In this document: positions 5,862-64,000 of the stretch, piece after piece
Layout of the letters: the number at the start of each line of letters is the position of its first letter
Position numbering within the stretch: position 1 is the first letter of the stretch
From: an uncultured Psychrobacter sp.
GTDB taxonomy: Bacteria; Pseudomonadota; Gammaproteobacteria; Pseudomonadales; Moraxellaceae
Length of the DNA: 64,000 bases
NCBI GenBank assembly: GCA_947489525.1
Contig: CANLDW010000005.1
Coordinates: forward strand, 23,626 to 87,625
Direction of reading: 5' to 3'
Notes under the pieces: model-generated
Seen by the model: only the letters and a program-made list of their open reading frames with translations
Told to the model about the DNA's origin: nothing
Database searches by the model: none
Position numbers and translations under genes: made by a program

Positions 5862-6280
5862 CAGACCTCCCCTGCCACAATTTCAAAATCGTGCGTGATA
5901 TTGACGCCGCCTTGCATGAGCATACGACTCGCCGAACAGTATTTTTCCGCTGATAGATGAATCGCCTTTTCAACTTGCTTGTCTTTGATATTTTGGCCAC
6001 TGACAATAAAGTGCAGGTGGATATCAGTATAAACAGCTGGGATGGTCTCAGCGCGATTAGCAGTTAATACGCAGCGCACATCGACGAGCTCTTGGCGCGA
6101 TTTTTGTAGGATCGACACCACATCATAGCTGGCGCAGCCGCCAAGTCCGAGTAGCACCAGCTCCATTGGACTTGCGCCTTTTTCTTTATCAGCATCGATT
6201 TGTACTTCATGCCCTGAAGGCGCTACCCCTATAAACGCTTTGTTCTCTTGCCATGTTACGCTTGCTGTTGACTCTGTCAT
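5861..6280 (-). CDS. OsmC family peroxiredoxin-like protein
   Basis: GASPMELVLLGLGGCASYDVVSILQK and a C-terminal SAEKYCSASRML motif (the two conserved Cys of OsmC/Ohr). Confidence 0.85.
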   Translation of the reverse strand: MTESTASVTWQENKAFIGVAPSGHEVQIDADKEKGASPMELVLLGLGGCASYDVVSILQKSRQELVDVRCVLTANRAETIPAVYTDIHLHFIVSGQNIKDKQVEKAIHLSAEKYCSASRMLMQGGVNITHDFEIVAGEV

Positions 6281-6635
6281 TACTCATTATCCTTGCACTT
6301 ATTTACGTGTTGTTATCGTTTCAAAAGTTGTTAATCGCTAGTGTATCACAAGCCAAAACGGCTGGTCATAATGTGGGTGGTCAAGTTATTTTATTGATAA
6401 AAAGCGGTAACAAATCTTGAATGAGATGGTGCTGATAAACTATTGATTTTACAGCGTTAAATTTGTGAAACATTTTATAGCAAAATAGCGTTACACATTT
6501 GGCCTATTTCTTGCTTTAATAATGACAATGAATCTTATTTCAGTTTACACCTTTATAAGTCACCTTATAATAATTACGACTTATAGAAACGCCATCTGAG
6601 ATAAGCTATTTTAAATATATAAACAAGGTTACGTC

Positions 6636-7254: not shown

Positions 7255-8088
7255 CTATTTATTGACTTCACGGCTCACTAATTGTAAGTTTGGCGATGAT
7301 TGACCTTCAGTTACGCTCATCGTCAATATGCTTTGCGTGCGCGTTCCATAGGTCGGTGCTGGGGTATGATTGTCTGTATTAGTCGATCCATTAGACATAG
7401 GATTAAAGGCAACAGCATCAATATAGACGGATGACAGTGCCTGTTCAATCTCGCTAGTAACGCCTGTGCTGGGCAGCTGATTAGGCGGCGCTGGTGTATC
7501 ATCGGACATCACTGCAAAGGCAGCCTGTTGCCAATATTCAAGCGCGCGATCCTCAGCAATCAAAGGCAATACCTCTTGGCGCAGACGGCCGCGTAGTTTC
7601 TCCGTCTTAAACCAGCCCTCATCAGGCTGACCATTTGATAATACGTGTAGTCCTACATGTAGCGGCGTTGGTGCGTGCCCGCGATTATTAACGATGACCG
7701 CCTGCTTATCATCGCCAACAACAAGATTAAAGCCTGCGTAGTCCTGTAAGCTGATCTGCCGTGCAAAGGCTAGCGGACTGAGCTTACTAGTCAAAAATTC
7801 AGTGACCAGCTCGCCACGCGAGCGCTCATTATCGCCCGCTTGCACGCCATCACGAAAGTTCAACACCGCCGCCCAACGTCCGTTTTGCTGGTAGCTGTCA
7901 GGCTCAACGGGTTGGCTGTGAATACCTAGCCACGTACCGCCGCTTTGGCTATCGCGACCTGCAAAGATTGGCATATCACCCCATTGATGCAGCGGCTTGG
8001 TTGGACGCGCCAAAAACTCATCGCGGTTAGACACTAGTACGAGGGGCATATCTGCAAACAACTGCCAAGCGATAGCGACGATACACAT
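7255..8088 (-). CDS. NRDE family protein (TANGO2-like, DUF833)
   Basis: MCIVAIAWQ N-terminus (Cys2), SNRDEF motif, GRDSQSGGTWLG. The start was moved to the internal ATG (M18 of the ORF track). Confidence 0.8.
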   Translation of the reverse strand: MCIVAIAWQLFADMPLVLVSNRDEFLARPTKPLHQWGDMPIFAGRDSQSGGTWLGIHSQPVEPDSYQQNGRWAAVLNFRDGVQAGDNERSRGELVTEFLTSKLSPLAFARQISLQDYAGFNLVVGDDKQAVIVNNRGHAPTPLHVGLHVLSNGQPDEGWFKTEKLRGRLRQEVLPLIAEDRALEYWQQAAFAVMSDDTPAPPNQLPSTGVTSEIEQALSSVYIDAVAFNPMSNGSTNTDNHTPAPTYGTRTQSILTMSVTEGQSSPNLQLVSREVNK

Positions 8089-8446
8089 ACAGGATCCTAA
8101 ATGATTTTTTTTGCTTAGTTGATAGTTAGCTTGGAACAATATTAATGGGCTAATAGCACAGTGCTACCAACATCAGCTAGCAATTACGACGACTATAGCA
8201 CACGTCGCCTGCTGACTTTATATCTGTTGTAGTCATAGCAAATATCGTTTATAGACGGCTTGCCATACAGCGCTTATTATTTGTCGCTATTTTTGCTATG
8301 ATACCAAGCGTCTGTGTTGATGTTTTACGGTTTTTTTATTTATCTTATCAGCAATTAATTTTATACTTTGGCGGGCTTTATGCCTAATGTCTATTTCTTC
8401 CACCTACACGCATGCGCCACTAACATACGCAACTAAGTAACTTACT

Positions 8447-9331
8447 ATGATAATTCATCCTCAATACGATCCGGTCGCTTTGTCTCTTGGTCCGATAGAA
8501 GTGCACTGGTACGGCACCATGTACCTGTTAGCATTTGCAGCCGCTTATGCGCTAGCATGGTATCGTAGCACTAAGCGTGATGCGTGGTCGACCACTATGG
8601 TCTCAGACTTAGTGTTCTTTGGTGCGCTTGGCGTCATATTAGGTGGACGTATTGGATATGTATTGTTTTATCAGTTCGGCGAGCTGCTACAAAACCCTGC
8701 TTACTTGTTCAAGGTCTGGGAAGGCGGTATGTCCTTTCACGGCGGTCTGATCGGTGTCATCCTTGGCATGTGGTATTTTGCCCACAAGTACAAAAAGACG
8801 CCCTTTCAGGTGCTCGATTTTATCGCTCCTTGCGTCCCCACAGGACTGTTATTTGGCCGTATCGGTAATTACATCAACGGCGAGTTATGGGGTCGTATCT
8901 CAGATGGCGGTTATAACTGGCTTACCTACTTTCCGCAGGCCGCCGCCTTTGATATGCAGCAGCTACAGGCTAATCCAGCACTACAGGAGCTTATGCTAGA
9001 GGTGAACGGTCAGTACCTACTGCCGCGTCATCCTTCGCAGTTATACGAAGCCTTTGCTGAGGGTTTGCTGCTATTTATTTTACTGTGGTGGTACTCTGCC
9101 AAGCCGCGTCCGCGTATGGCAGTATCTGGACTGTTTATGCTGGGGTATGGTCTAAGCCGCTTTATTATTGAGTTTTTCCGTCAGCCAGACGCCGACCAAG
9201 GGTTTATCCTACTCGGCTGGATGACCAAAGGTCAGATATTAAGCGCGCCGATGATCCTTATCGGTATTGGTCTTATCCTTTATGCCTATAAGCGCGGCAT
9301 CTACGATTGGGGCAAACAGGCGGCTTATTAA
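8447..9331 (+). CDS. lgt: prolipoprotein diacylglyceryl transferase
   Basis: IHWYGTMYLLAF, GGRIGYVLFY, W.GGMSFHGGLIG and GRIGNYINGELWGR motifs. Confidence 0.92.
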   Translation: MIIHPQYDPVALSLGPIEVHWYGTMYLLAFAAAYALAWYRSTKRDAWSTTMVSDLVFFGALGVILGGRIGYVLFYQFGELLQNPAYLFKVWEGGMSFHGGLIGVILGMWYFAHKYKKTPFQVLDFIAPCVPTGLLFGRIGNYINGELWGRISDGGYNWLTYFPQAAAFDMQQLQANPALQELMLEVNGQYLLPRHPSQLYEAFAEGLLLFILLWWYSAKPRPRMAVSGLFMLGYGLSRFIIEFFRQPDADQGFILLGWMTKGQILSAPMILIGIGLILYAYKRGIYDWGKQAAY

Positions 9332-9393
9332 TATAGGACAACTCAGCTAAGCGCTATTATTGACGATATCTAATATCAACGAGAGCAAAGATC

Positions 9394-10254
9394 ATGATCA
9401 CCAGTAAAAATGAGCAAGCGTATTTGGACTTATTACAATATGTCTTAAACCATGGTACTGAAAAAGGCGATCGTACGGGCACAGGGACGCTGAGTCATTT
9501 TGGCGCGCAGCTACGCTTTGATCTAGCTGATGGTTTTCCACTATTGACCACCAAAAAGGTGCACTTTAAGTCCATCGTTTACGAGCTATTGTGGTTCTTA
9601 AGTGGTAGTACGCACGTGGATTATCTACAAGAGCATGGCGTGCGTATTTGGAATGAGTGGGCAACTGGCGAGCAGACTGCAAAATTTAAGCGCCCAGCAG
9701 GCGACTTAGGGCCTGTCTACGGTCATCAGTGGCGCAATTACGGCGCCAGTCAACAGGACAACGGCGAGTACAATAACGACGGCGTTGATCAAATCAGCGA
9801 GGTGGTCGAGCAGATAAAAACCAATCCCAACTCGCGCCGTTTAATCGTCTCAGGCTGGAACCCAAAGGAGGCCAATCAAGTTGCCCTTCCCCCTTGTCAT
9901 ACGCTGTTTCAGTTCTTTGTTGCAGATAACAAGCTCTCCTGCCAACTCTACCAGCGCTCAGCGGATCTGTTCTTAGGTGTACCGTTTAACATTGCCAGCT
10001 ACGCGCTATTAACCCACATGATCGCTCAAGTTTGCAAGCTAGAGGTCGGCGAGTTTATCTGGACAGGTGGCGATTGTCACTTGTATCAAAACCATCGTGA
10101 ACAGGCCGAGCTACAACTATCGCGCTCACTATATGAGCTGCCGACTCTCACTTTAAATTCAGACGTAGACGACATCTTTGCCTTTACCTATGAAGATGTT
10201 AGCATTACAGGCTATGAGTCGCATCCCGCCATCAAGGCTAAAGTTGCCGTCTAG
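9394..10254 (+). CDS. thyA: thymidylate synthase
   Basis: [36 protein letters not shown] motifs. Followed by folA. Confidence 0.95.
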
Positions 10255-46855: not shown

Positions 46856-46946
46856 GGTGAAGTGGGTGAGTGGCTGAAACCGCACGCCTGGAAAGTGTGT
46901 ATACGTTCATAGCGTATCGAGGGTTCGAATCCCTCCTTCACCGCCA
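46856..46946 (+). tRNA. tRNA-Ser (anticodon GGA), CCA encoded
   Basis: Acceptor GGTGAAG/CTTCACC, anticodon stem CACGC/GTGTG with loop CTGGAAA, long variable arm, T-arm GAGGGTTCGAATCCCTC, then GCCA. Near-collinear with E. coli tRNA-Ser(GGA) as recalled. Confidence 0.97.
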
Positions 46947-47016
46947 ATCTTACTAAATGCCCCTTTTCCTATCTTGTCCTAAACACTCCCATACACCTCT
47001 GTAACCCTTTATATAC

Positions 47017-47040
47017 AACGCGTCTAGCGTTTTTTTTATG
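47017..47040 (+). terminator. hairpin terminator downstream of tRNA-Ser
   Basis: AACGC-gtcta-GCGTT followed by T8 and then ATG. Confidence 0.6.
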
Positions 47041-47093
47041 TCTAACGTTTTCCTAACCTAACCGAATATAACCTACCTATCCCTTGGCTTGTG

Positions 47094-47229
47094 TTGGTCT
47101 ATATGTTGGTTTATCATCTAACTATATCTTAAATAGACCAACCATAGACCTGTTTTCATTAAGCTTTAGACCAGTATATAGTCCAAATACCTTAAAAAGC
47201 GTGCGTCTTAGACAAAGAGAATAGACCAA
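47094..47229. repeat. array of seven WTAGACCAA-like motifs (candidate integrase arm-type sites)
   Basis: ATAGACCAA at 47133 and 47221, and inverted at 47094-47102. Variants are ATAGACCtg at 47144, tTAGACCAg at 47166, ATAGtCCAA at 47178 and tTAGACaAA at 47208. Confidence 0.75.
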
Positions 47230-47230
47230 T

Positions 47231-48585
47231 ATGTTAACCGATATTAAAGTTCGTAAACTTAAACCTAGTGAGAAATGTACGCCTTCGCGTCCTGATAAAT
47301 ACAGTGACAAACAAGGGCTACAGCTTTTAGTACGCAGTACAGGCACAAAGACATGGATAAGTGCCTATCGCTTCGATAGTAAGCAAAAAAGGACTACCTT
47401 AGGTACATATCCACAAATGAGCTTAGCAGAAGCTAGAACAGCTAATGCTGATATTAAAGTATTAGTAGCTCAGGGCATTAATCCAAAAAATAAAAAGCGT
47501 CAAGATAAGCTTGAGAATGAACAAGCTCAGACGTTTAATGACTATGCGCTTGACTGGTTAGAAGAGCGTAAGCGTAACGTAAAGCTCGTACCTATCAGCA
47601 AGACTACAATCGCTTGCACAAAGACGTTCTACCTAACTTTGAAAGTATTGCTCTAAAGAATATAACTTTTGAAGACTGTAAATTTATGGCAGATCAGATT
47701 GAGAGTAGAAAAACCGTTGATGGTTCACCGCCAAGAGAAGTGACTAGACGTACGATTGACCTTGTTACTAACATTCTTAGAAGAGCTAAAAGAGAACGTT
47801 TAATCAATACGATTCATACAGAAGGCCTTAAAGAGCTTTACCCTAAGGCCAAGACTGAGCATATGAAGCACGTTGAGCTTAAAGAGCTACCTAAACTACT
47901 TCAAGATATTGAGAACTATCACGGTCATGATCAGACACGTCTAGCAATGAAGTTTTTAGCCTACTCTTTTTGTCGTACTATCGAGCTTAGGATGATGAAA
48001 TGGGAGCATATCGACTTTCCTAATCGTCTATGGCGTGTTGATATCGATAATCTTAAGATTGCGCGTAAGCACGTCGTACCGCTGTCAGATCAAATGCTTG
48101 CAGTATTAGAAGAAATGAAAGACATCACAGGACAGTATGAGTACGTGTTCTATAATACGGGTATGCACCAGCCTTACAGTGCAGAGTTCATCAACAATGC
48201 GCTAGATATACTCGGCTATGCGGGTAAACAGACTGGACATGGCTTTCGCCACATCGCCTCCACCAACTTAAACGAGCTTGGCTACATGGGAGATGCCATC
48301 GAAAAGCAAATGGCGCATGACAAAAAAGGTAGCATTAGAGCAGTATACAACCATGCTCAGCACTTGGAGGAACGGCGTAAGATTATGCAAGTCTGGGCGG
48401 ACTTTTTAGACCTGCTCAGAGACACAGGCGAGGTTATAGACTTTCAGACTGCGCGGCAGCAGATTGAGCAGTCGCTTGGTAAGCATAATGAGGCATCGCT
48501 GGCAGAGGTGGACAGCGATGCTTTGATACAGGCTTTGAGAGATAAAGGGCTAACCGTTAAAGATATCCAAAGGTTAGCTACTTAG
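47231..48585 (+). pseudogene. int: P4-type tyrosine integrase, disrupted by a frameshift near 47578-47585
   Basis: N-terminal DUF4102 arm-binding domain in frame 2 (47231-47656). The core-binding and catalytic domains (R...HGFRH...AH...Y) are in frame 1, which is open from 47578. Reading ERKRNV|(K)ARTYQQDYNRLHKDVLPNF restores continuity. Confidence 0.8.
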
Positions 48586-56039: not shown

Positions 56040-56397
56040 TTAGCTATTTGGAAGAGACCAAGTCCAGCCTTCAGAAACAACTAAACCATCGCGCCGCATT
56101 TTCTGCAATAGATTACGCACTTTGTTCTTATGCTGTTTGTCGTCTAACACTTGCGGTAGCTTATTAGCTAGCATTTCATCAAAGTCAGCTAACCTACCTC
56201 GCTCAATGCGTGCCATCCTCGACACCAAATACCAAGTAGCCAAATTTCTTACCAGCCAAACATGCGCTATTGGCAAGCGCAGATATACGCTGACCGATCT
56301 CATCGGAGCTATGAAAGTTATGCTTAAACTCAAGCCATTCTTGCTCGGTGAGCTGCTGAGTTAGGCTTAGGACAAGGCTTTGGTAGTGATTAGGCAT
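56040..56397 (-). pseudogene. remnant of an AlbA_2 (Schlafen-like divergent AAA) / RecG-like HTH regulator gene
   Basis: Two overlapping frames. The N-terminal 64 aa (EWLEFKHNF....IGQRISALANS...GYLVFGVEDGT) fits the AlbA_2 domain. The second frame ends with a typical C-terminal wHTH tail (KVRNLLQKMRRDGLVVSEG..WSL). About 120 codons in total, against more than 400 expected. Confidence 0.6.
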
Positions 56398-56557
56398 GGC
56401 AATAGTCTCATTATCTGATCAGCAATTAGTATAGCTGGACTTATTAGTATGGCAGTATTTTAACGATTTGTGTGATCTCTAGTAGCTTGAGTCTTAAATA
56501 AATGCGAAAAAACTACTAGCCTTTCGATATAATAAGTTTCATATAGATGATTTTTGC

Positions 56558-56586
56558 TTGATTCATTTTGTGCCGTGCGTTATTAT
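56558..56586 (+). promoter_or_regulatory. candidate sigma-70 promoter of a stand-alone small transcription unit
   Basis: TTGATT-N17-TATTAT. Confidence 0.45.
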
Positions 56587-56611
56587 TTTTTTATGCTGAT
56601 TTCGCTAAGAA

Positions 56612-56854
56612 ATGAAATTAGTCTTGTCTTCCCTTTTATCCAAATTAGTAGTTGTACTCGTTCTGTGTTTATTTCCCTGTATGTTGAATTTGTCAGCGTT
56701 GTATGACTTGACCAGTTTTATAGCAACCACAGATTTTGTGTATAACAAAGTGAAAGCTTTGACTAACCTTAAAAGTAACAGGAGCAAAGGTATGAAAACA
56801 GTTTCGAGAGTCAAAGGTGTGATTGCAGTGTCCTGGGGGTTAGCACAGCGATAA
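56612..56854 (+). CDS. small ORF: an 80-aa hydrophobic-N-terminus protein, or only its last 20 codons (ATG 56792 with an AGGAG SD)
   Basis: This is the only plus-strand ORF between the candidate promoter and the plus-strand-specific terminator. The N-terminus KLVLSSLLSKLVVVLVLCLF is TM-like. The internal ATG at 56792 has a perfect SD (AGGAGcaaaggtATG). Confidence 0.3.
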   Translation: MKLVLSSLLSKLVVVLVLCLFPCMLNLSALYDLTSFIATTDFVYNKVKALTNLKSNRSKGMKTVSRVKGVIAVSWGLAQR

Positions 56855-56926
56855 GACTACTACTTAGATAATGTTGTTGGCGGAGGGCTCTGCTTAAGGG
56901 CGTACCTTAGACTCCCACTATATTCA

Positions 56927-56967
56927 GAACCGTCCTATATAGGGCGGTTCTTCTATTTCTATCTTTT
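56927..56967 (+). terminator. plus-strand terminator of the small unit
   Basis: 9-bp stem GAACCGTCC/GGGCGGTTC (one G-U pair, which would be an A-C mismatch on the other strand), loop TATATA, then a U-rich tail TTCTATTTCTATCTTTT. Confidence 0.6.
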
Positions 56968-57229
56968 AGAAACATCCCTAACCCAAAACCTGCTTAATTA
57001 GCTGAAAATTACGCACAGATTTGCATAAACTTATCGACTTTGGCAACGATTCGGTGTTGTCCGTCTTAGATGTACTCAGTGTACTATCTGCGATCAGTCA
57101 CCATATAGCGTTTATAAAACTCCTTGACTATATAACATATCTGGCTTTTACTATCTAATCGCCACCTTACCATTCATCAGCTCAGACAAGCTCTATCACC
57201 TAAGCCCAACTAAATACTTTTCACACCAG

Positions 57230-57661
57230 CTAACTTGTTTTCAAATGCGGTATCAGCTCACCACTAGGTAGCTCTATTAGGTAAGTAGTCACAAGGTACG
57301 GTTCTGCTGGAAAGGTTAAAGCTTCAGGGATTAGCGGGCCATCTATTCCTATACCATAGTTATTCATATTAGCAAAGGATTTTTCAGCAGCTGCTAGTGT
57401 GTCCTCTACGATACTATGCATGTATTGATTAAAGGTAGCGACTTCCACAGCACCAGACATCGTGCCATGCTCAGAGCTAAGCTGATAGTTATCAGGGATC
57501 TTTACGACCTGTGCCGTTCGGTAGTCGGAACGCGCAAGTATTGTCAGCACCGTGCTTATTTCTTGATCGGTGGCATCTAACGCATAAGCTCTAAATAAAA
57601 AGCGCTGAACGACACCTGTCATCTGATCTACGATTGGCCAAATATTTGCTACCAGCTCCAT
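57230..57661 (-). CDS. hypothetical protein (143 aa) co-oriented with and 60 nt downstream of hsdR
   Basis: Clean ORF with an ATG start. No recognisable family. Confidence 0.55.
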   Translation of the reverse strand: MELVANIWPIVDQMTGVVQRFLFRAYALDATDQEISTVLTILARSDYRTAQVVKIPDNYQLSSEHGTMSGAVEVATFNQYMHSIVEDTLAAAEKSFANMNNYGIGIDGPLIPEALTFPAEPYLVTTYLIELPSGELIPHLKTS

Positions 57662-57721
57662 AACGTTTTTCCTGACTATAACTTTAATAGAGATTTGTAT
57701 TTATTAATTTATAAGTATCGT

Positions 57722-60700
57722 CTACTCAGGTTGAGCACCACCCACAACAAACGCCCTCAACGCTGCATCAACCTTTATATTGACTTTAAACATAGGAATA
57801 CTGCTGCCTTCTAGCGCTTCAAAATAGGCTTTTGCTTTGTCTTTATCAACGGTACTCTTAAGCTCATCGAAACGTCCAAACTCATTGATGTTCGATTCAG
57901 TCACTACGCTATCTAGAAGCGTGCGCAGTTGGGCTTCATCCAGACCTAGGTTATCCGAAAACTGTTTGATACTGTCATGCTGAGCCTGTGCTTGGTATTT
58001 GATGATATAGTCTTTAAAGGTAGTATCAGCTTCAATCTTAACTTTACCACGTTGTACATCGCGCAAGAATATATTAGCGTATTTTTGTTCGTCAGCACTT
58101 AGCGTCGGAAAGGCTTTATGTAATTCATTTAGCGCTTGCTCGGCATCGCCCAGCTCAAGCGACTCGATATACTTCTTAAAGCGTTCGTTTAGATACTCGG
58201 TATCGATTCTAGCAGTATTGATTTGGGTGAGATGACCTGAGATGTCAAAGGGTACATCACCTGATCCACTCGATGAGCCCCCTTGAAACAGCTCTTTATA
58301 ACGCATAGCTAAAATTAGATATGTTTGTTCATCGAAGTCTAGCGTGACTCTAGTATCTTCGAAGTCATAGCTTAACTTATCCCACGTAAAACCTTGGATC
58401 TCTGCTGCCTCCAAATGGTCGTTCAACTGCTTGAATAGCTTAGCAAACTTAGCTTTGCTAGCATCCGTACTAGGCAGAGCCTCAAAGCTTGCTATCCCAT
58501 CTGCGCTAAATACCGCTTGGATTTCAGCAAAAACATCATTCATCTTAGCCAGATTACTCTCAAGTTTATCGACAAACAGTCCAATGGGTTTGTCACCAGA
58601 GTAAAGCTTGATCGCCGCTTCGATATTACGCGCCATGGTATAAGGCTTGCGGTAGTAGCGAATCGTACCGAAGGGTTTTTCATGACCAAATAAGCGGTTG
58701 GTACGCGAGAACGCTTGGATGATATTTTCGTAGCGTATAAGCTTATCGATATATAAGGTATTGACCCATTTAGAATCGAATCCTGTCAGCATCTGCTCAA
58801 CGACTATCAATATATCCAGCTGCTGATCTGGCGTGCGCTCAATAAACTGATACGGCTCTTTATGCGCTAAACGATTGGCAAGATCTTTTTTAAACTTGCT
58901 ATGACTGGCTATTTTAAAGTCTTTGTCATATTGGCTATTGTAGTCGGTGATAATCTCAGCCATGCCTTGTTCTTTAAAAATGGATGTTTTCTCATTGTCT
59001 GTAACAGTATCAAATAAGGCGCTGATTTTTAGAGTTAGACCTTGTACTTGGATTTGCGATTTTAATAAGCGGTAATAAGTAATGGCTTCAACAATGCTAC
59101 TGGTCGCAAATATGGCATGGAACTTACCGCCTCGGCTAAGCGTTGGGAAATTATCCAAGATATCTTCAACCACCATGTTCTGGTGCTCATCTGTCAGATA
59201 CTGCTCTTTGGGTAGATAATCCTCAATACCTTTGATGTATGTACCATCAGCTTGCTTATGCCCTGCCATGGCGACATCATTGATAAACTCATAATACTTT
59301 TTACGCTTTTTTTCATCTGCTAAGGCTTCTGCCTCTGTGCTAGATTTTGCTTGTTGCAAAGCTACAGCTTGACGGACTTCTTTATCCTTAAAGGTCGCTA
59401 CGCGGTATAAGTCAAAGCCTAAGACGTTTTTATCACGTATACCATCAGCAATACTGTAGCGGTGCAGCTCATCGCCGAATATATCAGCGGTGGTATTCAT
59501 TTTACGCTGGTTTTCGTCATGAATAGGCGTGCCGGTAAAGCCAAAAAATATCGCATTAGAAAAGGTTTGTTTGATGGTTTTGAGCATATCGCCAAAGGTT
59601 GAGCGATGCGCTTCATCAACGATAAATACTAAACGCTTGTCCTGCATGACACTCAGATCGTGAGCATTCATACCGCTACTGTCGACTTCGATATTGCTCA
59701 TTTTTTGGATGGAGGTGACGATTAAGGTATCTTTTGGATCGCTGCTTTTTATTTTGCCAATTAAAGCATGGGTGTCATCCGTATCCTGCACGTCATCGAT
59801 GTCATCAGCAAAATGTTGATACTGGATAAATGACTGTGTACCCAGCTCAATGCGATCCATCAAAAAGATCACTTTATCCGCATCTTGAGAGCTGGCAATC
59901 AATTGCGCGGACTTGAAGCTGGTCATGGTCTTGCCTGAGCCTGTGGTATGCCAGATATAGCCGCCAAGCTGACTATTGGCATCCTGCCATTTGGTAGTAG
60001 ATACCTTATCAGAGATAGCATTGGCAGCATAATACTGATAACTGCGCATCACCTTTAATACACCATCTGCCTTGTCCGCTACGGTATAAAATCCGATCAT
60101 CTGATGCGCCATAGGAATAGACAGCAATGATGCTGCGATATCTTTGTAGCTGGTGTACGGCTCATTATAGAAATTTGCCCAGCTAAAATAGTAATCAGCA
60201 TTAAAGTTGCCATCGGGATTGGCAAAATATACTGACTCTTCAGGATTCATAGCGACAAAAATCTGCACTAATGCAAACAGTCCGGTAAAGATGCCAGCAT
60301 CGCTATATTTCTCAATTTGATTGCACGCTTGGCTGATAGGCACACCGCTACGTTTCAGCTCAATATGAAAGACAGGCATGCCGTTAATCAGTAGCATGAG
60401 GTCACCACGGCGGTCACGCAGCCCAGGCGACTTGGTTGGGAATTGGGGCTGTTTGACGATCTGGTAGCGGCTCTGACCTGCTGCGATCTCGTGGCGATCA
60501 TATATCTTTAGGCTGATCTCTTTACCTAAATGCAAAGGGTCGTCTGGGTTATCACGGATGATCGAGACGGTCTTACCATTGATAAAGCCGTTGAGCTTAA
60601 GCGGTGTCTTTAAGGTATTAATCTGCTCAATGAGCTGCTGCATCTCGCTATCGGTCAGCGGTACGTTGTTGAGGCGATCGATACAACGATTGTTCTCAAA

Positions 60701-60829
60701 TAAGATACGCGCCCAGTTATTGATAAGGTCTTGCTCGGTAGGCCGATTGATAACTTCCTCTTCCCAGCCTTTTTGTTTGAGGATATGGATGAGCGCGTCT
60801 TCAAATTTGTCTTCAGATGCAAAGGTCAT
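57722..60829 (-). CDS. hsdR: type I restriction enzyme R subunit
   Basis: N-terminal nuclease region (FEDALIHILKQKGW, PD-(D/E)xK-like IELK), SF2 motor with HTTGSGKT (motif I) and VDEAHRS (DEAH), and a long helical C-terminus. The ATG at 60829 has a GAAGG SD; the ORF-track TTG at 60853 is less likely. Confidence 0.93.
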   Translation of the reverse strand: MTFASEDKFEDALIHILKQKGWEEEVINRPTEQDLINNWARILFENNRCIDRLNNVPLTDSEMQQLIEQINTLKTPLKLNGFINGKTVSIIRDNPDDPLHLGKEISLKIYDRHEIAAGQSRYQIVKQPQFPTKSPGLRDRRGDLMLLINGMPVFHIELKRSGVPISQACNQIEKYSDAGIFTGLFALVQIFVAMNPEESVYFANPDGNFNADYYFSWANFYNEPYTSYKDIAASLLSIPMAHQMIGFYTVADKADGVLKVMRSYQYYAANAISDKVSTTKWQDANSQLGGYIWHTTGSGKTMTSFKSAQLIASSQDADKVIFLMDRIELGTQSFIQYQHFADDIDDVQDTDDTHALIGKIKSSDPKDTLIVTSIQKMSNIEVDSSGMNAHDLSVMQDKRLVFIVDEAHRSTFGDMLKTIKQTFSNAIFFGFTGTPIHDENQRKMNTTADIFGDELHRYSIADGIRDKNVLGFDLYRVATFKDKEVRQAVALQQAKSSTEAEALADEKKRKKYYEFINDVAMAGHKQADGTYIKGIEDYLPKEQYLTDEHQNMVVEDILDNFPTLSRGGKFHAIFATSSIVEAITYYRLLKSQIQVQGLTLKISALFDTVTDNEKTSIFKEQGMAEIITDYNSQYDKDFKIASHSKFKKDLANRLAHKEPYQFIERTPDQQLDILIVVEQMLTGFDSKWVNTLYIDKLIRYENIIQAFSRTNRLFGHEKPFGTIRYYRKPYTMARNIEAAIKLYSGDKPIGLFVDKLESNLAKMNDVFAEIQAVFSADGIASFEALPSTDASKAKFAKLFKQLNDHLEAAEIQGFTWDKLSYDFEDTRVTLDFDEQTYLILAMRYKELFQGGSSSGSGDVPFDISGHLTQINTARIDTEYLNERFKKYIESLELGDAEQALNELHKAFPTLSADEQKYANIFLRDVQRGKVKIEADTTFKDYIIKYQAQAQHDSIKQFSDNLGLDEAQLRTLLDSVVTESNINEFGRFDELKSTVDKDKAKAYFEALEGSSIPMFKVNIKVDAALRAFVVGGAQPE

Positions 60830-60845
60830 GGACAAGCCTTCTGAG

Positions 60846-62072
60846 TTATACAAACATTTTTGCCAATAAGGCTTGTTTAAGGTTTTCTAAAGTTTTAAGC
60901 TGCTTGGCTTGTAAGCTTAGCGTATCGTCAAGTTGTTTAAAGAATTGACCGATGGCGGTTTGTTCGGCAGACTGTAAAGGTGTACTAATAATTATTTTTT
61001 TTAAACTAGATGTAGTAATTGCAGGATAACTTGTTCCTGTACATTCTTTGAGAACATCATATACAAAACTATCTTTCTGTATATAGCTTAATAGGAAATC
61101 ACTACTTATATACGGTCTAATTTGAATATAACCTGTAGAAAAAACGAAGTCAGTATAATGTAAATTGAACAGATAATTATTTTTCTGATATGGTCGAACA
61201 GCTTGATAAAAAAGATCTCCTTCTTTAGCTAGTCGCTGTGCTCGAGAAGGAGCTTGCTCCCTTGACTCTTTTCTTGAATATAAAAGCTTCGTTCCAGAAA
61301 CTGACTCTAAATCGACATAATTAAAGTTATCAGGTAAAACTCCTGACGGATTAAAGTCTCCTATACCTCCTAACTCAATTTCAACCCAATCCCCACTAAA
61401 CCCTGCTAAACGAATCTCAGGCTGCTTTTGTCCTTTTTTTGGGAACATTTTACTCAGTAGCGATTGTTTAAGCGTTTGCGTTTGCTCATGCTTACGGCGC
61501 TGTAGGGCAATGGTTTGGTCGATATTTTGAAAAAAGTTGCCGATGGCGATTTGTTCTTGCATTGAATTCGGTAACGTATATTTTAAATGCTTAATACCTG
61601 ACCAATTAACATAAATTTGTGTATTCCCTTGTGAGGACTTTACAATCTTTTCACGTATGTTATCAGCATTTAGCATTTGATACATAAATTTAGGATAATA
61701 CTTTTGCTGATCCAATATCAGTCGCTGTGTTCTTTGATTGAACACGTATTTTTCATCTTCATCGATTAGTAAAGCTCTTCCTATGATATTACCTGCTAAA
61801 GTTTTATCATTCAAAACCATAGCAAGATCATTTTTATTTAAAACCTTTTTTTTGGTTTTTTCATTTTCTGATGCTCGGATACCTTGATCTGTGTATGTAC
61901 TGTTTTTCGAGTACGAGCCAATACTTATTACCTTATATTTACCAGTTTTTGCAAACTCACTTTCTAGAGACGTTCCACCTACTGACGACCCGAAGTCCTC
62001 CATAGGCCGCAAAGTCCAATCCTCACTAAAACCTGTAAAGCGAATTTGTGGTGTTTGTTGTCTTATACTCAT
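60846..62072 (-). CDS. hsdS: type I restriction-modification S (specificity) subunit
   Basis: Two target-recognition halves, each followed by a conserved helix (LKQSLLSKMFP / LKQALLAKMFV), with IRFTGFSEDW / IRLAGFSGDW repeats. Confidence 0.92.
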   Translation of the reverse strand: MSIRQQTPQIRFTGFSEDWTLRPMEDFGSSVGGTSLESEFAKTGKYKVISIGSYSKNSTYTDQGIRASENEKTKKKVLNKNDLAMVLNDKTLAGNIIGRALLIDEDEKYVFNQRTQRLILDQQKYYPKFMYQMLNADNIREKIVKSSQGNTQIYVNWSGIKHLKYTLPNSMQEQIAIGNFFQNIDQTIALQRRKHEQTQTLKQSLLSKMFPKKGQKQPEIRLAGFSGDWVEIELGGIGDFNPSGVLPDNFNYVDLESVSGTKLLYSRKESREQAPSRAQRLAKEGDLFYQAVRPYQKNNYLFNLHYTDFVFSTGYIQIRPYISSDFLLSYIQKDSFVYDVLKECTGTSYPAITTSSLKKIIISTPLQSAEQTAIGQFFKQLDDTLSLQAKQLKTLENLKQALLAKMFV

Positions 62073-62073
62073 A

Positions 62074-63150
62074 TTACACTCGATTCATAAAAAGCTGATA
62101 TAACGCAATATTGATATAATAAGAAGTTCTACCAATTTTTTCTTTTTGTAAAAGTCCAATTTCGGTTAGCTCATCAAGATACTTAGTAGCGGTCTTACGC
62201 GTGACATCCAAGTCGTTTTGGACAAACTCTATCTTGGTATAAGGATGATTGAACAAATTATTCAATAGCTCTTGGCGATAGATTTTGGGCTTTTGCTCTC
62301 GAATTGTATGCTTATAGAGTTGCATCAGTTTTTTCATCTCTTTGATCAATGCAATAGTCGAGATAGCTGTTTCTTCTACACTGTCGAGCATAAACAGTAT
62401 CCACCCCTCCCACTCACCCGTATCTCTTACCTCTTGTAGATAACGATAATAGTCAGCTTTATTTTGGATAAGATAATTACTCAGATAGAGTACAGGCAAG
62501 TCTAGCAAGCCTTGAGTAATCAGATATAGAATATTGATGATGCGCCCTGTACGCCCATTGCCATCGTAAAACGGGTGAATACTCTCAAATTGATGATGAA
62601 TCACCGCCATTTTAACTAAAGGGTCAAGATCACAAGCCTCATTGTCATTGGTAAAGGTGACCAGGTTATCCATAAGTCTTTTGACATCTTCAGGATGCTG
62701 TGGCGGGGTATAAACGACTTGACCACGATTATTCTGTAGCGTGGTGCCTGGTAATTTGCGAAACCCTGCCACGTTCTTTTCAAGCTCTTCTTGAATGGTC
62801 AAAATATCACTCAGACGAATGATTTGATTTTTTCTGATAACCGCAAAGCTTGATTTTAGTGCCTGATTATAATTTTGCACCTCTTTTGTCGCAAGGTTTT
62901 GATCCATCAAGGACAGTTCAGCTTTAAATAGCTCATCGTGGGTGGTTACTATGTTTTCAATCTCAGAGCTGTTTTTCGCCTCTTGTAAAACGAGTGTGTT
63001 TATCAATATGGCTTCATTAGGAATGGACGAAACCACCCCTTTTAGTTCTGCTAAGTAGCGATGGGCTGATGATAGCTTTTTGAGTACCGCTCTAGTTTCT
63101 AGCGATTCCATGTCATCAAAGGGTAACTCTTTTATTTCATACGTTGTCAT
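62074..63150 (-). CDS. Fic family protein (AMP-transferase type, Fic_N plus Fic plus a C-terminal wHTH)
   Basis: Active-site motif HPFYDGNGRTGR at 62542-62577. N-terminal SSEIEN (62953-62970) fits the [ST]xxxE[GN] inhibitory motif. The ATG at 63150 has an AGAGGT SD. Confidence 0.9.
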   Translation of the reverse strand: MTTYEIKELPFDDMESLETRAVLKKLSSAHRYLAELKGVVSSIPNEAILINTLVLQEAKNSSEIENIVTTHDELFKAELSLMDQNLATKEVQNYNQALKSSFAVIRKNQIIRLSDILTIQEELEKNVAGFRKLPGTTLQNNRGQVVYTPPQHPEDVKRLMDNLVTFTNDNEACDLDPLVKMAVIHHQFESIHPFYDGNGRTGRIINILYLITQGLLDLPVLYLSNYLIQNKADYYRYLQEVRDTGEWEGWILFMLDSVEETAISTIALIKEMKKLMQLYKHTIREQKPKIYRQELLNNLFNHPYTKIEFVQNDLDVTRKTATKYLDELTEIGLLQKEKIGRTSYYINIALYQLFMNRV

Positions 63151-63197
63151 AGACACCTCTTAGAATATGCGTCATTTTCTAGACTTTTTATACAGGT

Positions 63198-63275
63198 TAT
63201 GCAGATATGCATAAATAAATGCTTTTTTTACTCATATTTGCATAACATGCGTAAATTTCCTAATATTTTACGCAT
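63198..63275 (-). promoter_or_regulatory. inverted repeats in the hsdM-fic spacer (candidate operator/promoter region)
   Basis: TATGCA-gata-TGCATA (63198-63213) and ATGCGTAAA-N11-TTTACGCAT (63247-63275). A third ATGCGTCA lies at 63167. Confidence 0.35.
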
Positions 63276-63309
63276 ATATAAGAATTATCTTTCTATAGAA
63301 TGTATTATT

Positions 63310-64000
63310 TTAAGTCTTCAACAACGTTTGTAGCGCTTCTAATCCTGCCATATCAAACTCATTGCCTGTTAACTGATCGATCATATCTGCCAGCTCGTTT
63401 TCAGATTTTTCTAGCTTCTGTGTAGTGTCTGTATAAGTATCGGCGTACTTATTGGCAAGCGCTTGCGTTTGCTGCGTTAAGTCACTAACCACATCGTCTG
63501 CCAGCTGCATCATGGCATTATAAAGCGGGACTATCCATTTATAGGTAAGTAGCTCGTTCACAGTAGCGTCATCTAGCGCTTCGATGGTTTCTTTGGTTTT
63601 TTGATGCAAGGCATCACTATCGGCTCTAATCTCAGCTTTGAGTGTTTTTTCTTCCTCTAACAAATCACTGATTTGCACGAGCCTAGCCTTATCGCTATCT
63701 TCTGCAAACTCATGCGTGGCTTGCAGGGTCTTAATATAGGCACTGACTTTAGACTTACCATAATCGCCGCCTTTGTTTGCCTCAATGTTGTGCCAATTGA
63801 CCGCGGACTCATTGGCGACATAATCAAGCCTCTCAGGTTTTTTGGGCTTAGTCTCCAAGAAGTCTAGATAACGACTGAGCGCTGTGATCTCAGGCGTTGC
63901 AATATCTGCATAGGCTGAGCTGAGCGCTTTGTTAACATCGCTGCTTGAGAAGCTACTACCGCTATCATTGAGCAGACTCTCTTTTTGTTCTTCATCCAGC
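63310..64000 (-). CDS. hsdM: C-terminal part of a probable type I R-M methyltransferase subunit (5' end outside the window)
   Basis: The reading frame stays open from 63310 to the window edge; codons upstream of the ORF-track TTG were checked by hand. Helical/coiled-coil C-terminus. The assignment rests on operon context only, because no methylase motifs fall inside the window. Confidence 0.5.
   Translation of the reverse strand, partial: LDEEQKESLLNDSGSSFSSSDVNKALSSAYADIATPEITALSRYLDFLETKPKKPERLDYVANESAVNWHNIEANKGGDYGKSKVSAYIKTLQATHEFAEDSDKARLVQISDLLEEEKTLKAEIRADSDALHQKTKETIEALDDATVNELLTYKWIVPLYNAMMQLADDVVSDLTQQTQALANKYADTYTDTTQKLEKSENELADMIDQLTGNEFDMAGLEALQTLLKT

Follow-up and report, generated by a model that had tools for sequence, protein, structure and literature searches.

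A predicted SoFic-family AMP-transferase gene with upstream palindromes between hsdM and hsdS of a Psychrobacter type I restriction-modification locus

The locus lies at the right end of a 64,000-nucleotide stretch of Psychrobacter DNA (the window), where the initial annotation had placed five co-oriented genes on the minus strand; these gene calls were borne out by domain scans and coordinates. In reading direction the 3' part of hsdM is followed by a 159-nt spacer and then by fic, hsdS, hsdR and orf143. The hsdM part (63310..64000) runs off the window end and belongs to a type I methyltransferase of the long form, which has a coiled-coil-like extension at its C-terminus. In the domain scans the truncated reading frame matches long type I methyltransferase models at their C-terminal end only (PADLOC MTase_I PDLC03022, E=1.6e-29, model positions 696-856 of 857). 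It is 70% identical in nucleotides to a related locus, L003, where the full-length orthologue of 916 aa carries HsdM_N and N6_Mtase. The specificity subunit encoded by hsdS (60846..62072) has two target-recognition domains, matches Pfam Methylase_S in two stretches and hits PADLOC Specificity_I with 2e-89. The hsdR gene (57722..60829) codes for a restriction/translocase subunit of 1035 aa, counted from the ATG at 60829, with an EcoR124-like (type IC-like) make-up of the Pfam domains HSDR_N, SWI2_SNF2/ResIII, T1R_D3-like and EcoR124_C. It scores 339 bits against TIGR00348 hsdR, above the cutoff of 284.55, and its N-terminus agrees with that of L003. Together hsdM, hsdS and hsdR make up a complete type I restriction-modification (R-M) system.

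The previously reported junction positions all check out. The fic stop codon TAA (62076-62074) is followed by a single T and then by the hsdS ATG (62072-62070), and the hsdS stop codon (60848-60846) is separated by a 16-nt junction from the hsdR ATG, which has AAGG 7 nt upstream. Concerning the translational coupling suggested earlier, that of hsdS to fic appears plausible from the sequence, the TAATATG junction being kept in L001 and L003. Tight packing does not extend throughout the operon, as had been thought, since the spacer between hsdM and fic is AT-rich, 159 nt long and contains three palindromes. The minus strand showed no terminator-like sites in the intervals separating these genes, and because hsdS and hsdR stand directly behind fic, with junctions of 1 nt and 16 nt and without a terminator, the gene anatomy suggests that they are probably co-transcribed with it. 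A generic promoter scan yielded 20 sites against 18.3 expected, which is not above chance.

The fic gene (62074..63150, minus strand) encodes a predicted class II protein AMP-transferase of the SoFic family. Translation probably begins at the ATG at 63150, which AAGAGG precedes by 5 nt and at which the homologues start too, the GTG at 63156 being less likely. With this start the protein has 358 aa, the catalytic histidine is His192 and the inhibitory glutamate Glu65, which corrects the residue numbers H194 and E67 used before. The active site HPFYDGNGRTGR, with an intact HxFx(D/E)GNGRxxR motif containing His192, is encoded at 62577-62542, as the initial annotation had read it. The proposed N-terminal inhibitory motif SSEIEN, which contains Glu65, was likewise recovered at 62970-62953; it aligns with the SSEIEN of SoFic, which holds E73 of the published E73G variant. 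With both motifs intact, the earlier reading of the enzyme as catalytically competent yet auto-inhibited (class II) is right. [quoted passage not shown] Family membership in SoFic is indicated by the PADLOC SoFic model (E=2.7e-121) and by nearly full-length matches to PDB 9vjc (5.8e-82) and to the solved SoFic entries in the PDB (about 1e-76). Since identity to the crystallised SoFic and EcSofic proteins is 42-44% and the score against the NCBIfam equivalog (362 bits) is below its cutoff of 550, an EF-Tu target and DNA-binding behaviour would be extrapolated to the window protein from these relatives.

The spacer between hsdM and fic (63151..63309, minus strand) contains the Shine-Dalgarno sequence AAGAGG and, as detected by inverted repeat searches, three palindromic units of 29 nt each (63167-63195, 63207-63235 and 63247-63275) at a spacing of 40 nt. 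The pattern ATGNRTNA-N13-TNAYNCAT matches these three units only in the 64-kb window. They align with fic-adjacent palindromes of other genera, giving the consensus ATATGTATAGAAAA-N5-6-TTTTCTATACATGT, and Psychrobacter loci with a stand-alone fic share the spacer in conserved form. The density of the half-site in the loci is about 17-fold higher in front of fic than in the rest, and longer arrays occur as a 42-nt repeat in 4.3 copies (L022) and, in E. coli, as a 70-nt repeat in 7.4 copies. That an array of about 30-bp palindromes accompanies fic is a new detail. Since the SoFic protein binds to the 100 bp directly in front of its gene (10.64898/2026.07.09.737422), the three palindromes are by analogy likely to be the operator for the wHTH domain of Fic, and the spacer is proposed to hold the promoter of fic as well. 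Simple promoter autoregulation does not account for about half of the clade, where the palindromes are found on the downstream side of fic.

The locus is carried on a genomic island of Psychrobacter that appears to have inserted beside tRNA-Ser. Its likely left boundary (46856..48585, plus strand) is formed by tRNA-Ser(gga), placed by ARAGORN at 46856-46946, and a tyrosine integrase split into separate reading frames (Arm-DNA-bind_3 at 47231-47656, Phage_integrase at 47614-48585). At this boundary the GC content drops from about 0.46 to about 0.40, and the genes after the integrase code for DUF932, YqaJ, a Gp3-like RDF and AlpA. The last gene of the set, orf143 (57230..57661, minus strand), is without a Pfam, PHROG or PADLOC match and has 112 homologue clusters, mostly in Psychrobacter. 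It is missing downstream of hsdR in L003, while in L081 and L083 its neighbours are type I systems of unrelated kinds; it is thus a real conserved gene of the island backbone and not a member of the Fic/R-M unit.

The distribution of the Fic clade was surveyed in 80 genomes carrying a Fic protein 57-98% identical to that of the window. In 34 of these fic is linked to R-M genes, in at least seven architectures and on the same strand in all 34, and in 46 it has no R-M neighbour. Its operon position varies (M-F-S-R, R-F-M-S, M-S-F-R, R-M-S-F), the same clade also adjoins type ISP and MmeI-like enzymes, and stand-alone copies are flanked by housekeeping genes. Clustering at 90% identity gave 61 clusters, four of which mix R-M-linked and stand-alone members. 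The Fic proteins of L003 (embedded, M-F-S-R) and L004 (stand-alone) are 97% identical, with 89% identity in DNA, and homology between the two loci is confined to the segment from -98 through the fic stop codon. In E. coli EcSofic stands alone in 270 of 5426 genomes, and a copy 99% identical to the prototype SoFic sits in a type I operon with the order hsdR-fic-hsdM-hsdS. The very strong enrichment of Fic next to R-M genes and the strict co-orientation are real and exceed the strict needs of a neutral landing-pad model, so that some functional interplay with R-M is possible.

The explanation considered quite probable is that a portable SoFic cassette, consisting of the fic reading frame and about 100-130 nt of upstream DNA with three palindromic sites, was inserted between hsdM and hsdS of an island-borne type I system and acts as an independent second-line defence. 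The same cassette was found both inside and outside R-M loci. Following published SoFic work, dimeric Fic would use its C-terminal wHTH domain to bind the palindromes in front of its gene and repress itself; upon phage infection AMPylation would outweigh deAMPylation, and modification of EF-Tu in switch I would lead to translation arrest and abortive infection. Judged from the anatomy, co-transcription and coupling to hsdS would cause both defences to be expressed and inherited together, with R-M as the first line and SoFic as the independent second one, and Fic would not need to be controlled by the Hsd complex at the protein level.

Such control had been the central idea of the initial annotation, in which Fic is guarded like PrrC. 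In this model the Hsd complex or HsdM-HsdS would bind and silence Fic until a phage anti-restriction protein (for instance Ocr, ArdA or Stp) disturbs the complex and frees it, whereupon a host target would be AMPylated and infection aborted. The precedents PrrC-EcoprrI and RonA-HsdMS (10.1101/2023.04.06.535777; PMC3710099), the position of fic inside rather than beside the operon with probable coupling to hsdS, and a linkage to co-oriented R-M genes far above random-gene expectation all speak for it, and extra restraint would be sensible, since wild-type SoFic is not completely silenced by its own helix (PMC12249575). The clade occurs, however, as often outside R-M loci, with nearly identical proteins in both settings, so that an obligate guard is not supported. 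The operon position of fic is variable, and the R-M partners are so varied (type I of several families, type ISP, MmeI-like) that a conserved protein interface is unlikely. Furthermore a single SoFic gene is enough for defence (10.1101/2022.05.11.491447), whereas ronA reportedly occurs in linkage with hsd in every case, and Fic has regulatory parts of its own, namely an inhibitory helix in cis, a dimer switch and a wHTH domain with operators. The guard is therefore regarded as unlikely. A role resembling that of a C-protein, in which the wHTH domain acts on the palindromes to time or set hsdS and hsdR expression as the island arrives in a new host and the AMP-transferase is secondary, is rather improbable. 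The array does lie upstream of fic-hsdS-hsdR in the window and between fic and hsdS in many M-F-S-R loci, in both cases ahead of hsdS-hsdR, the repeats of the Shewanella prototype precede fic-hsdM-hsdS, and related Fic-wHTH proteins are palindrome-binding transcriptional autorepressors (PMC9755527). But such arrays are found as well beside stand-alone fic genes whose neighbours are unrelated, and thus belong to the cassette rather than to R-M control; moreover conservation of the catalytic and inhibitory motifs argues for selection on enzyme activity, and most type I systems work without such a gene. That Fic is a housekeeping regulator which tunes restriction (restriction alleviation) by modifying an Hsd subunit or another host factor would fit the gene linkage and the reversible AMPylase/deAMPylase nature of SoFic (10.64898/2026.07.09.737422), but is very improbable given that EF-Tu is the target described in the literature and that most copies stand alone.

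The novelty initially attributed to the arrangement was overstated. SoFic is known from the literature as a stand-alone gene for abortive-infection defence, protects as a single gene (10.1101/2022.05.11.491447) and is listed as a single-gene anti-phage defence system by PADLOC and DefenseFinder. Its toxicity depends on dimerisation (PMC12249575), and a 2026 preprint names EF-Tu as the target of its AMPylation and reports that it binds to its own promoter (10.64898/2026.07.09.737422). A multi-level defence with Fic/Doc toxins in R-M neighbourhoods was proposed in 2013 (Anantharaman et al., PMC3710099), a proposal never linked to the SoFic clade or put to test. What stands of the claim is that no experiments on Fic-Hsd coupling were found in the searchable literature. 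As the founding SoFic member already shows the same arrangement, the locus is a well-annotated, ordinary case of SoFic within a type I operon.

SoFic (Shewanella oneidensis SO_4266 / mloA) and E. coli EcSofic are class II Fic AMPylases (Millman et al. 2022, 10.1101/2022.05.11.491447) which share with the window protein the three-domain architecture, the intact HxFx(D/E)GNGRxxR motif and the N-terminal SSEIEN. In all of them, moreover, the region in front of the gene is AT-rich and contains several copies of palindromic half-sites, which are of the type ATGTCGA in Shewanella and E. coli and ATGYRTA in the window. The prototype copy is embedded in a type I operon too, with another gene order than the hsdM-fic-hsdS-hsdR of the window and with an HsdR of the EcoEI_R_C instead of the EcoR124_C type. 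In contrast to SoFic, the 1-nt gap to hsdS leaves no room for an AS1-like small gene downstream of the window fic, and two reported dimer-interface residues differ (L28 to R20, L50 to S42). PrrC-EcoprrI and Ronin (RonA-HsdMS) are abortive-infection effectors silenced by type I R-M proteins and freed by anti-restriction factors. They resemble the window in having a toxic effector gene inside and co-oriented with a type I hsd operon, and a second-line logic is plausible. PrrC is, however, an ABC-ATPase/HEPN anticodon nuclease and RonA a 61-aa membrane peptide, whereas the predicted window effector, a Fic AMPylase, brings auto-inhibition and a DNA-binding domain of its own, and its clade is not obligately hsd-linked. 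For the Doc/Fic toxins described together with R-M components in 2013 (PMC3710099) a multi-level strategy against DNA, RNA and proteins was proposed, an idea which the initial annotation shares, but their neighbourhoods usually also include a PrrC/RloC-like HEPN protein, which is absent at the window locus. Finally CccR of Yersinia pseudotuberculosis, a Fic and HTH toxin autorepressing via a palindromic operator, has low identity to SoFic (29% over 45% coverage; PMC9755527). It is a T6SS effector targeting FtsZ without R-M context, and its operator is one 10-bp inverted repeat with a 26-bp spacer, whereas the window has an array of about 30-bp units. Its butterfly-type dimer, with C-terminal DNA-binding domains on inverted repeats of its own promoter, may nevertheless serve as a model for the palindromes at 63167-63275 (PMC9755527).

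The protein encoded by the fic gene matches three Pfam families, each above its cutoff (PF13784, 3.7e-27; PF02661, 4.3e-19; PF21248, 9.4e-26), yielding an architecture of Fic_N, Fic and a SoFic-like C-terminal wHTH domain. SoFic is a defence family of class II Fic AMPylases with S. oneidensis SO_4266 (mloA) as its prototype, and the corresponding PADLOC model PDLC03963 covers residues 8–354 with its positions 13–358 of 361 (E=2.7e-121). Nearly full-length matches to solved structures were those to EcSofic, the E. coli member (9vjc, 5.8e-82), and to S. oneidensis SoFic (3eqx, 3zcn and entries with the prefix 9t, about 1e-76). The catalytic motif HxFx(D/E)GNGRxxR is intact (HPFYDGNGRTGR, residues 192–203, positions 62577–62542) and aligns to HPFIDGNGRTGR of SoFic. 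Class II is defined by a cis inhibitory helix of the form (S/T)xxxE(G/N), and this too is present, as SSEIEN (residues 61–66, positions 62970–62953), aligned to the SSEIEN of SoFic which contains E73. Of the dimerisation-helix residues required for AMPylation in SoFic (E26, L28, L31, K32, and L50) three are conserved as E18, L23, and K24, and R20 and S42 stand in the places of L28 and L50; EcSofic likewise has an arginine at the L28 position. As identity amounts to only 44% with EcSofic and 41.5% with SoFic, and as the NCBIfam equivalog NF046030 (protein adenylyltransferase Fic) scores 362.3 bits, below its cutoff of 550, the protein is a member of the SoFic family and not a strict orthologue or equivalog of SoFic.

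All genes of the locus are encoded on the minus strand. The truncated upstream reading frame, of which the C-terminal 229 amino acids up to the stop at 63310 lie within the window, is read as the 3' part of a long form of hsdM. It matches the terminal portion of long-form type I methyltransferase models (PADLOC MTase_I, 1.6e-29), and its orthologue in L003, a Psychrobacter comparison locus, has a full length of 916 amino acids with HsdM_N and N6_Mtase domains. An AT-rich spacer of 159 nt separates it from fic (63150–62074), for which the ATG at 63150 is the preferred start because it is located 5 nt after AAGAGG and homologues start there; this choice would give a protein of 358 amino acids with the active site histidine as His192 and the helix glutamate as Glu65. 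At the fic/hsdS junction (...GTG TAA) a single T precedes the ATG of hsdS (62072–60846), and this TAATATG is identical in the related Psychrobacter operons L001 and L003. HsdS contains two Methylase_S stretches in Pfam, corresponding to two target-recognition domains, and is matched over its full length by PADLOC Specificity_I. The ATG of hsdR (60829–57722) is found 16 nt past the hsdS stop with an AAGG 7 nt upstream of it; HsdR scores above the TIGR00348 cutoff and comprises HSDR_N, SWI2_SNF2/ResIII, T1R_D3-like and EcoR124_C regions, that is, a nuclease N-domain, an SF2 motor and a C-terminal helical domain. The gene order, the junction positions, and the codon-level reading of active site and inhibitory helix made in the initial annotation were all borne out when the sequence was read again, and its interpretation proved right at the level of gene annotation.

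A fifth operon gene had also been counted there, namely orf143 (57661–57230), a conserved hypothetical protein to which profile scans assigned no family. This had to be abandoned, since orf143 is missing behind hsdR in L003 and adjoins unrelated type I systems elsewhere. Its 112 homologue clusters are mostly from Psychrobacter. In L081 it occurs (6001–6432) after a different type I hsdR and a YgjP-like gene on the same backbone, with AlbA_2 and AlpA genes downstream, and in the Shewanella locus L083 (6001–6426) beside yet another type I system with an FRG-domain gene. In all three contexts examined orf143 is located beside type I R-M genes, accompanied each time by something different (Fic, an AAA_15/AAA_21 pair plus YgjP, or the FRG-domain gene). 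Judged from these arrangements orf143 appears to mark a position occupied by differing R-M cargoes, and may border a hotspot for such cargo. The whole locus is cargo on an island of lower GC content which adjoins the tRNA-Ser gene at 46856–46946 and carries a split integrase followed by YagK/YfjJ-like, DUF932, YqaJ, Gp3-like RDF and AlpA genes. The tyrosine integrase next to the tRNA gene (47231–48585) consists of two overlapping reading frames with Arm-DNA-bind_3 and Phage_integrase domains, which points to a frameshift and perhaps to an island that is no longer mobile. Two short minus-strand reading frames at 56040–56397 resemble remnants of an AlbA_2/Schlafen-type ATP-binding gene, which L081 has intact at the equivalent location (8483–9707), and the adjacent stretch 56400–57230 is without a long reading frame, suggesting decay or deletion.

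The spacer between hsdM and fic contains three palindromic units of 29 nt (63167–63195, 63207–63235, and 63247–63275), exactly 40 nt apart and upstream of fic from -17 to -126. The pattern ATGNRTNA-N13-TNAYNCAT, allowing at most one mismatch, matches the 64 kb only at these three places with 0.86 matches expected for the whole window, a count which taken alone is circular as the pattern was derived from the spacer itself. Tandem Repeats Finder reported no array in this spacer, since the units are too diverged and are found by the palindrome pattern alone. An Rfam scan of 56500–64000 gave no match at E<=0.1, and a generic sigma-70 and terminator scan did not exceed shuffled expectation and was therefore not counted as evidence for a fic promoter. 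The spacer region is also conserved ahead of stand-alone fic genes of Psychrobacter, i.e., those with no R-M neighbour, and across 80 comparison loci the density of the half-site ATGYRTA in the 150 nt preceding fic is about 17 times that found elsewhere. Units from Psychrobacter, Alcanivorax, Mucilaginibacter, and uncultured proteobacteria share one palindromic consensus, ATATGTATAGAAAA-N5-6-TTTTCTATACATGT. In other genomes the unbiased repeat search did detect tandem arrays, directly after the fic stop in L022 (9123–9300, 42 nt in 4.3 copies) and upstream of fic in the EcSofic locus of E. coli, L087 (6334–6853, 70 nt in 7.4 copies), and in Shewanella ATGTCGA/TCGACAT half-sites are repeated within the 130 nt before the fic start. 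From centre to centre the half-sites are about 21 bp (about 71 Å) apart, close to the 70 Å between the DNA-binding helices of CccR, a Fic-HTH dimer which represses its own promoter via a palindrome (PMC9755527). The conserved region, the half-site density, the consensus across genera, the arrays at other loci, and a spacing near that of CccR together argue for a putative operator bound by the wHTH of the Fic protein itself, and the array offers a tangible feature through which SoFic regulation can be tested.

In several phyla, three to seven evenly spaced palindromes of about 30 bp flank the SoFic gene, with ATGTCGA-type half-sites in E. coli and Shewanella. Depending on the lineage they precede or follow fic, irrespective of an R-M operon setting, and they are located just after the fic stop in L021, L039, L041, L047, L055, L061, L062, and L067. 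About half of the clade has the array 3' of fic, and in many loci with the order hsdM-fic-hsdS-hsdR it occupies the gap between fic and hsdS; this downstream position is not explained by simple autoregulation. Pseudo-reading frames of 25–71 amino acids arise from the arrays downstream of fic in about 30 loci. That AS1, the downstream product of EcSofic, could be such a spurious reading frame was considered and rejected, as the E. coli array is upstream of fic. Downstream of EcSofic (L087, 7999–8150) only a terminator-like hairpin and an unrelated short reading frame are found; the sole candidate of about 47 codons in this stretch has a GTG start and extends through the hairpin into antisense sequence of the following gene.

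The genomic setting of fic was surveyed in 80 loci from different species with Fic proteins 57–98% identical to the one in the window, R-M genes being labelled with profiles made from the loci themselves and the labels checked with Pfam. R-M genes are located beside fic in 34 loci and are lacking in 46; of the 44 loci with at least 3 kb of sequence on each side, 21 are linked to R-M and 23 are not, and clustering at 90% identity gave 61 clusters (25 R-M-only, 32 stand-alone-only, four mixed). Missed R-M genes were sought in the stand-alone loci by relaxing the hsdM, hsdS, and hsdR profiles to E=10, without a convincing addition. The stand-alone copies lie between housekeeping genes, and according to Pfam their large neighbours are of housekeeping or other function, namely ilvD, threonine dehydratase, a 2-oxoacid dehydrogenase fusion, MFS, GGDEF-EAL, and an SbcCD-like pair. 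With M, F, S, and R for hsdM, fic, hsdS, and hsdR, the linked loci comprise 11 M-F-S-R, three M-F-S, five M-F, four R-F-M-S, two M-S-F-R, two R-M-S-F, and several single cases. The arrangement in the window, M-F-S-R with 1 nt between fic and hsdS, is a local variation. The R-M genes have the same orientation as fic in each of the 34 linked loci, which represent at least seven different architectures, and no R-M-like reading frame on the opposite strand occurs in any of the 80. The partners are classical type I systems of different families, two type ISP enzymes, and two MmeI-like enzymes; fic is linked to R-M genes generally, therefore, and not to the Hsd complex specifically. Close Fic relatives directly adjoin such single-chain enzymes on the same strand in L019 (3108–7955), L052 (9286–12435), and L071 (4845–7580). 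Another Shewanella has a SoFic 99% identical to the prototype, and there hsdR is followed after 264 nt by fic-hsdM-hsdS and then by an AAA_15/AAA_21 gene. Related type I operons in L084 (12524–14957) and L081 (1–1687) carry an accessory pair of an AAA_15/AAA_21 ATPase and a protein of 200–290 amino acids, either after hsdS or before hsdR, and the Shewanella locus with both this pair and SoFic thus has two extra modules. Of 5426 complete E. coli genomes, 270 carry EcSofic as a stand-alone gene.

Genomes usually hold few type I systems among thousands of genes, and an R-M adjacency of about 40–50% is therefore far above the level of a random gene. The association of fic with R-M loci is real. 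It is not obligate, as partner and position differ between loci and what is essentially one protein works with or without R-M neighbours. The R-M-embedded Fic of L003 has its closest relative in L004, also from Psychrobacter, where a Fic with 97% protein identity is stand-alone; DNA homology between the two (7903–9082 in both, 89%) begins no further than 98 nt ahead of the ATG and ends exactly at the stop codon. Both are strains of Psychrobacter immobilis, with the cassette inside hsdM-hsdS-hsdR in one and alone beside an MFS transporter gene in the other. Models are narrowed by such nearly identical proteins in both settings, and any coupling to R-M must be optional. What can be used from the survey is that a compact cassette moves with its palindrome array and lands in R-M loci far above chance, always in the same orientation.

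The most likely reading, and one we hold to be probable, is an autonomous, self-regulated SoFic abortive-infection cassette co-expressed with the type I R-M system. Such a portable cassette would often land, or be kept, in R-M operons and would there be co-transferred and co-expressed. An optional or lineage-specific R-M coupling of SoFic would also be compatible with the sequence data. We regard it as unlikely that SoFic in the R-M-embedded copies is functionally wired to restriction, or that the palindrome arrays are an inactivating DNA platform. Wiring could be achieved by Hsd-dependent silencing of SoFic with release by anti-restriction proteins, or by the operator array ahead of hsdS-hsdR, which could make expression of the restriction subunits dependent on SoFic. 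As a platform, the arrays may not be simple operators and may keep SoFic dimers inactive until infection disturbs DNA or transcription, which, if true, would amount to a novel way of activating a defence gene that is very common. Very doubtful is the proposal of the initial annotation that Fic is guarded, i.e., kept silent by the Hsd complex until freed by a phage anti-restriction factor: the position of fic among the hsd genes on the same strand is a feature shared with R-M-guarded effectors, but this clade is not consistently linked to hsd, occurring outside R-M loci at least as often as inside (46 of the 80 have no R-M neighbour, an outcome that the initial annotation had itself named as refuting its proposal), and the data fit poorly with a conserved protein-level guard like PrrC-EcoprrI or RonA-HsdMS (10.1101/2023.04.06.535777), the varying partners and positions and the nearly identical L003 and L004 proteins leaving an obligate form unsupported.

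SoFic was described in 2022 as a stand-alone Fic-domain defence protein present in a substantial fraction of genomes (10.1101/2022.05.11.491447). Several surveys place it among the commonest defence systems, and it is reportedly among the most widespread after R-M and CRISPR (PMC10924106; 10.1101/2024.10.26.620412). EcSofic is toxic on expression, requires His194 and dimerisation, and is said to be countered by the 47 amino acid AS1 (PMC12249575). According to a 2026 preprint SoFic blocks translation and AMPylates EF-Tu in switch I, is a constitutive deAMPylase which requires the dimer for AMPylation, and as a dimer specifically binds the 100 bp immediately preceding its own gene, there named mloA; no motif is given for this promoter binding (10.64898/2026.07.09.737422). 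Anti-phage protection and EF-Tu switch I AMPylation have been reported only from the E. coli and S. oneidensis proteins (10.1101/2022.05.11.491447; 10.64898/2026.07.09.737422). In 2013, Doc/Fic toxins were described from R-M gene neighbourhoods and interpreted as multi-level defence (PMC3710099). A literature search found no experiments on SoFic-Hsd coupling, no earlier description of palindrome arrays flanking fic, and no pairing of mloA with hsdM. Both SoFic and type I R-M are catalogued systems, and the locus is categorically nothing new.

Unlike in class I Fic toxin-antitoxin modules (VbhT-VbhA, FicTA), the inhibitory helix of the window Fic is present in cis. It also differs from the Sofic-AS1 pair, as no separate small antitoxin gene adjoins fic, the upstream spacer holding palindromes only and the hsdS ATG following after 1 nt, which likewise leaves no counterpart to the hairpin and short reading frame downstream of EcSofic. 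PrrC-EcoprrI and Ronin are precedents for guarding with other effectors, and the hsd linkage of ronA is reported as 'always', in contrast to the Fic clade of the window, which is found in R-M operons and between housekeeping genes alike.
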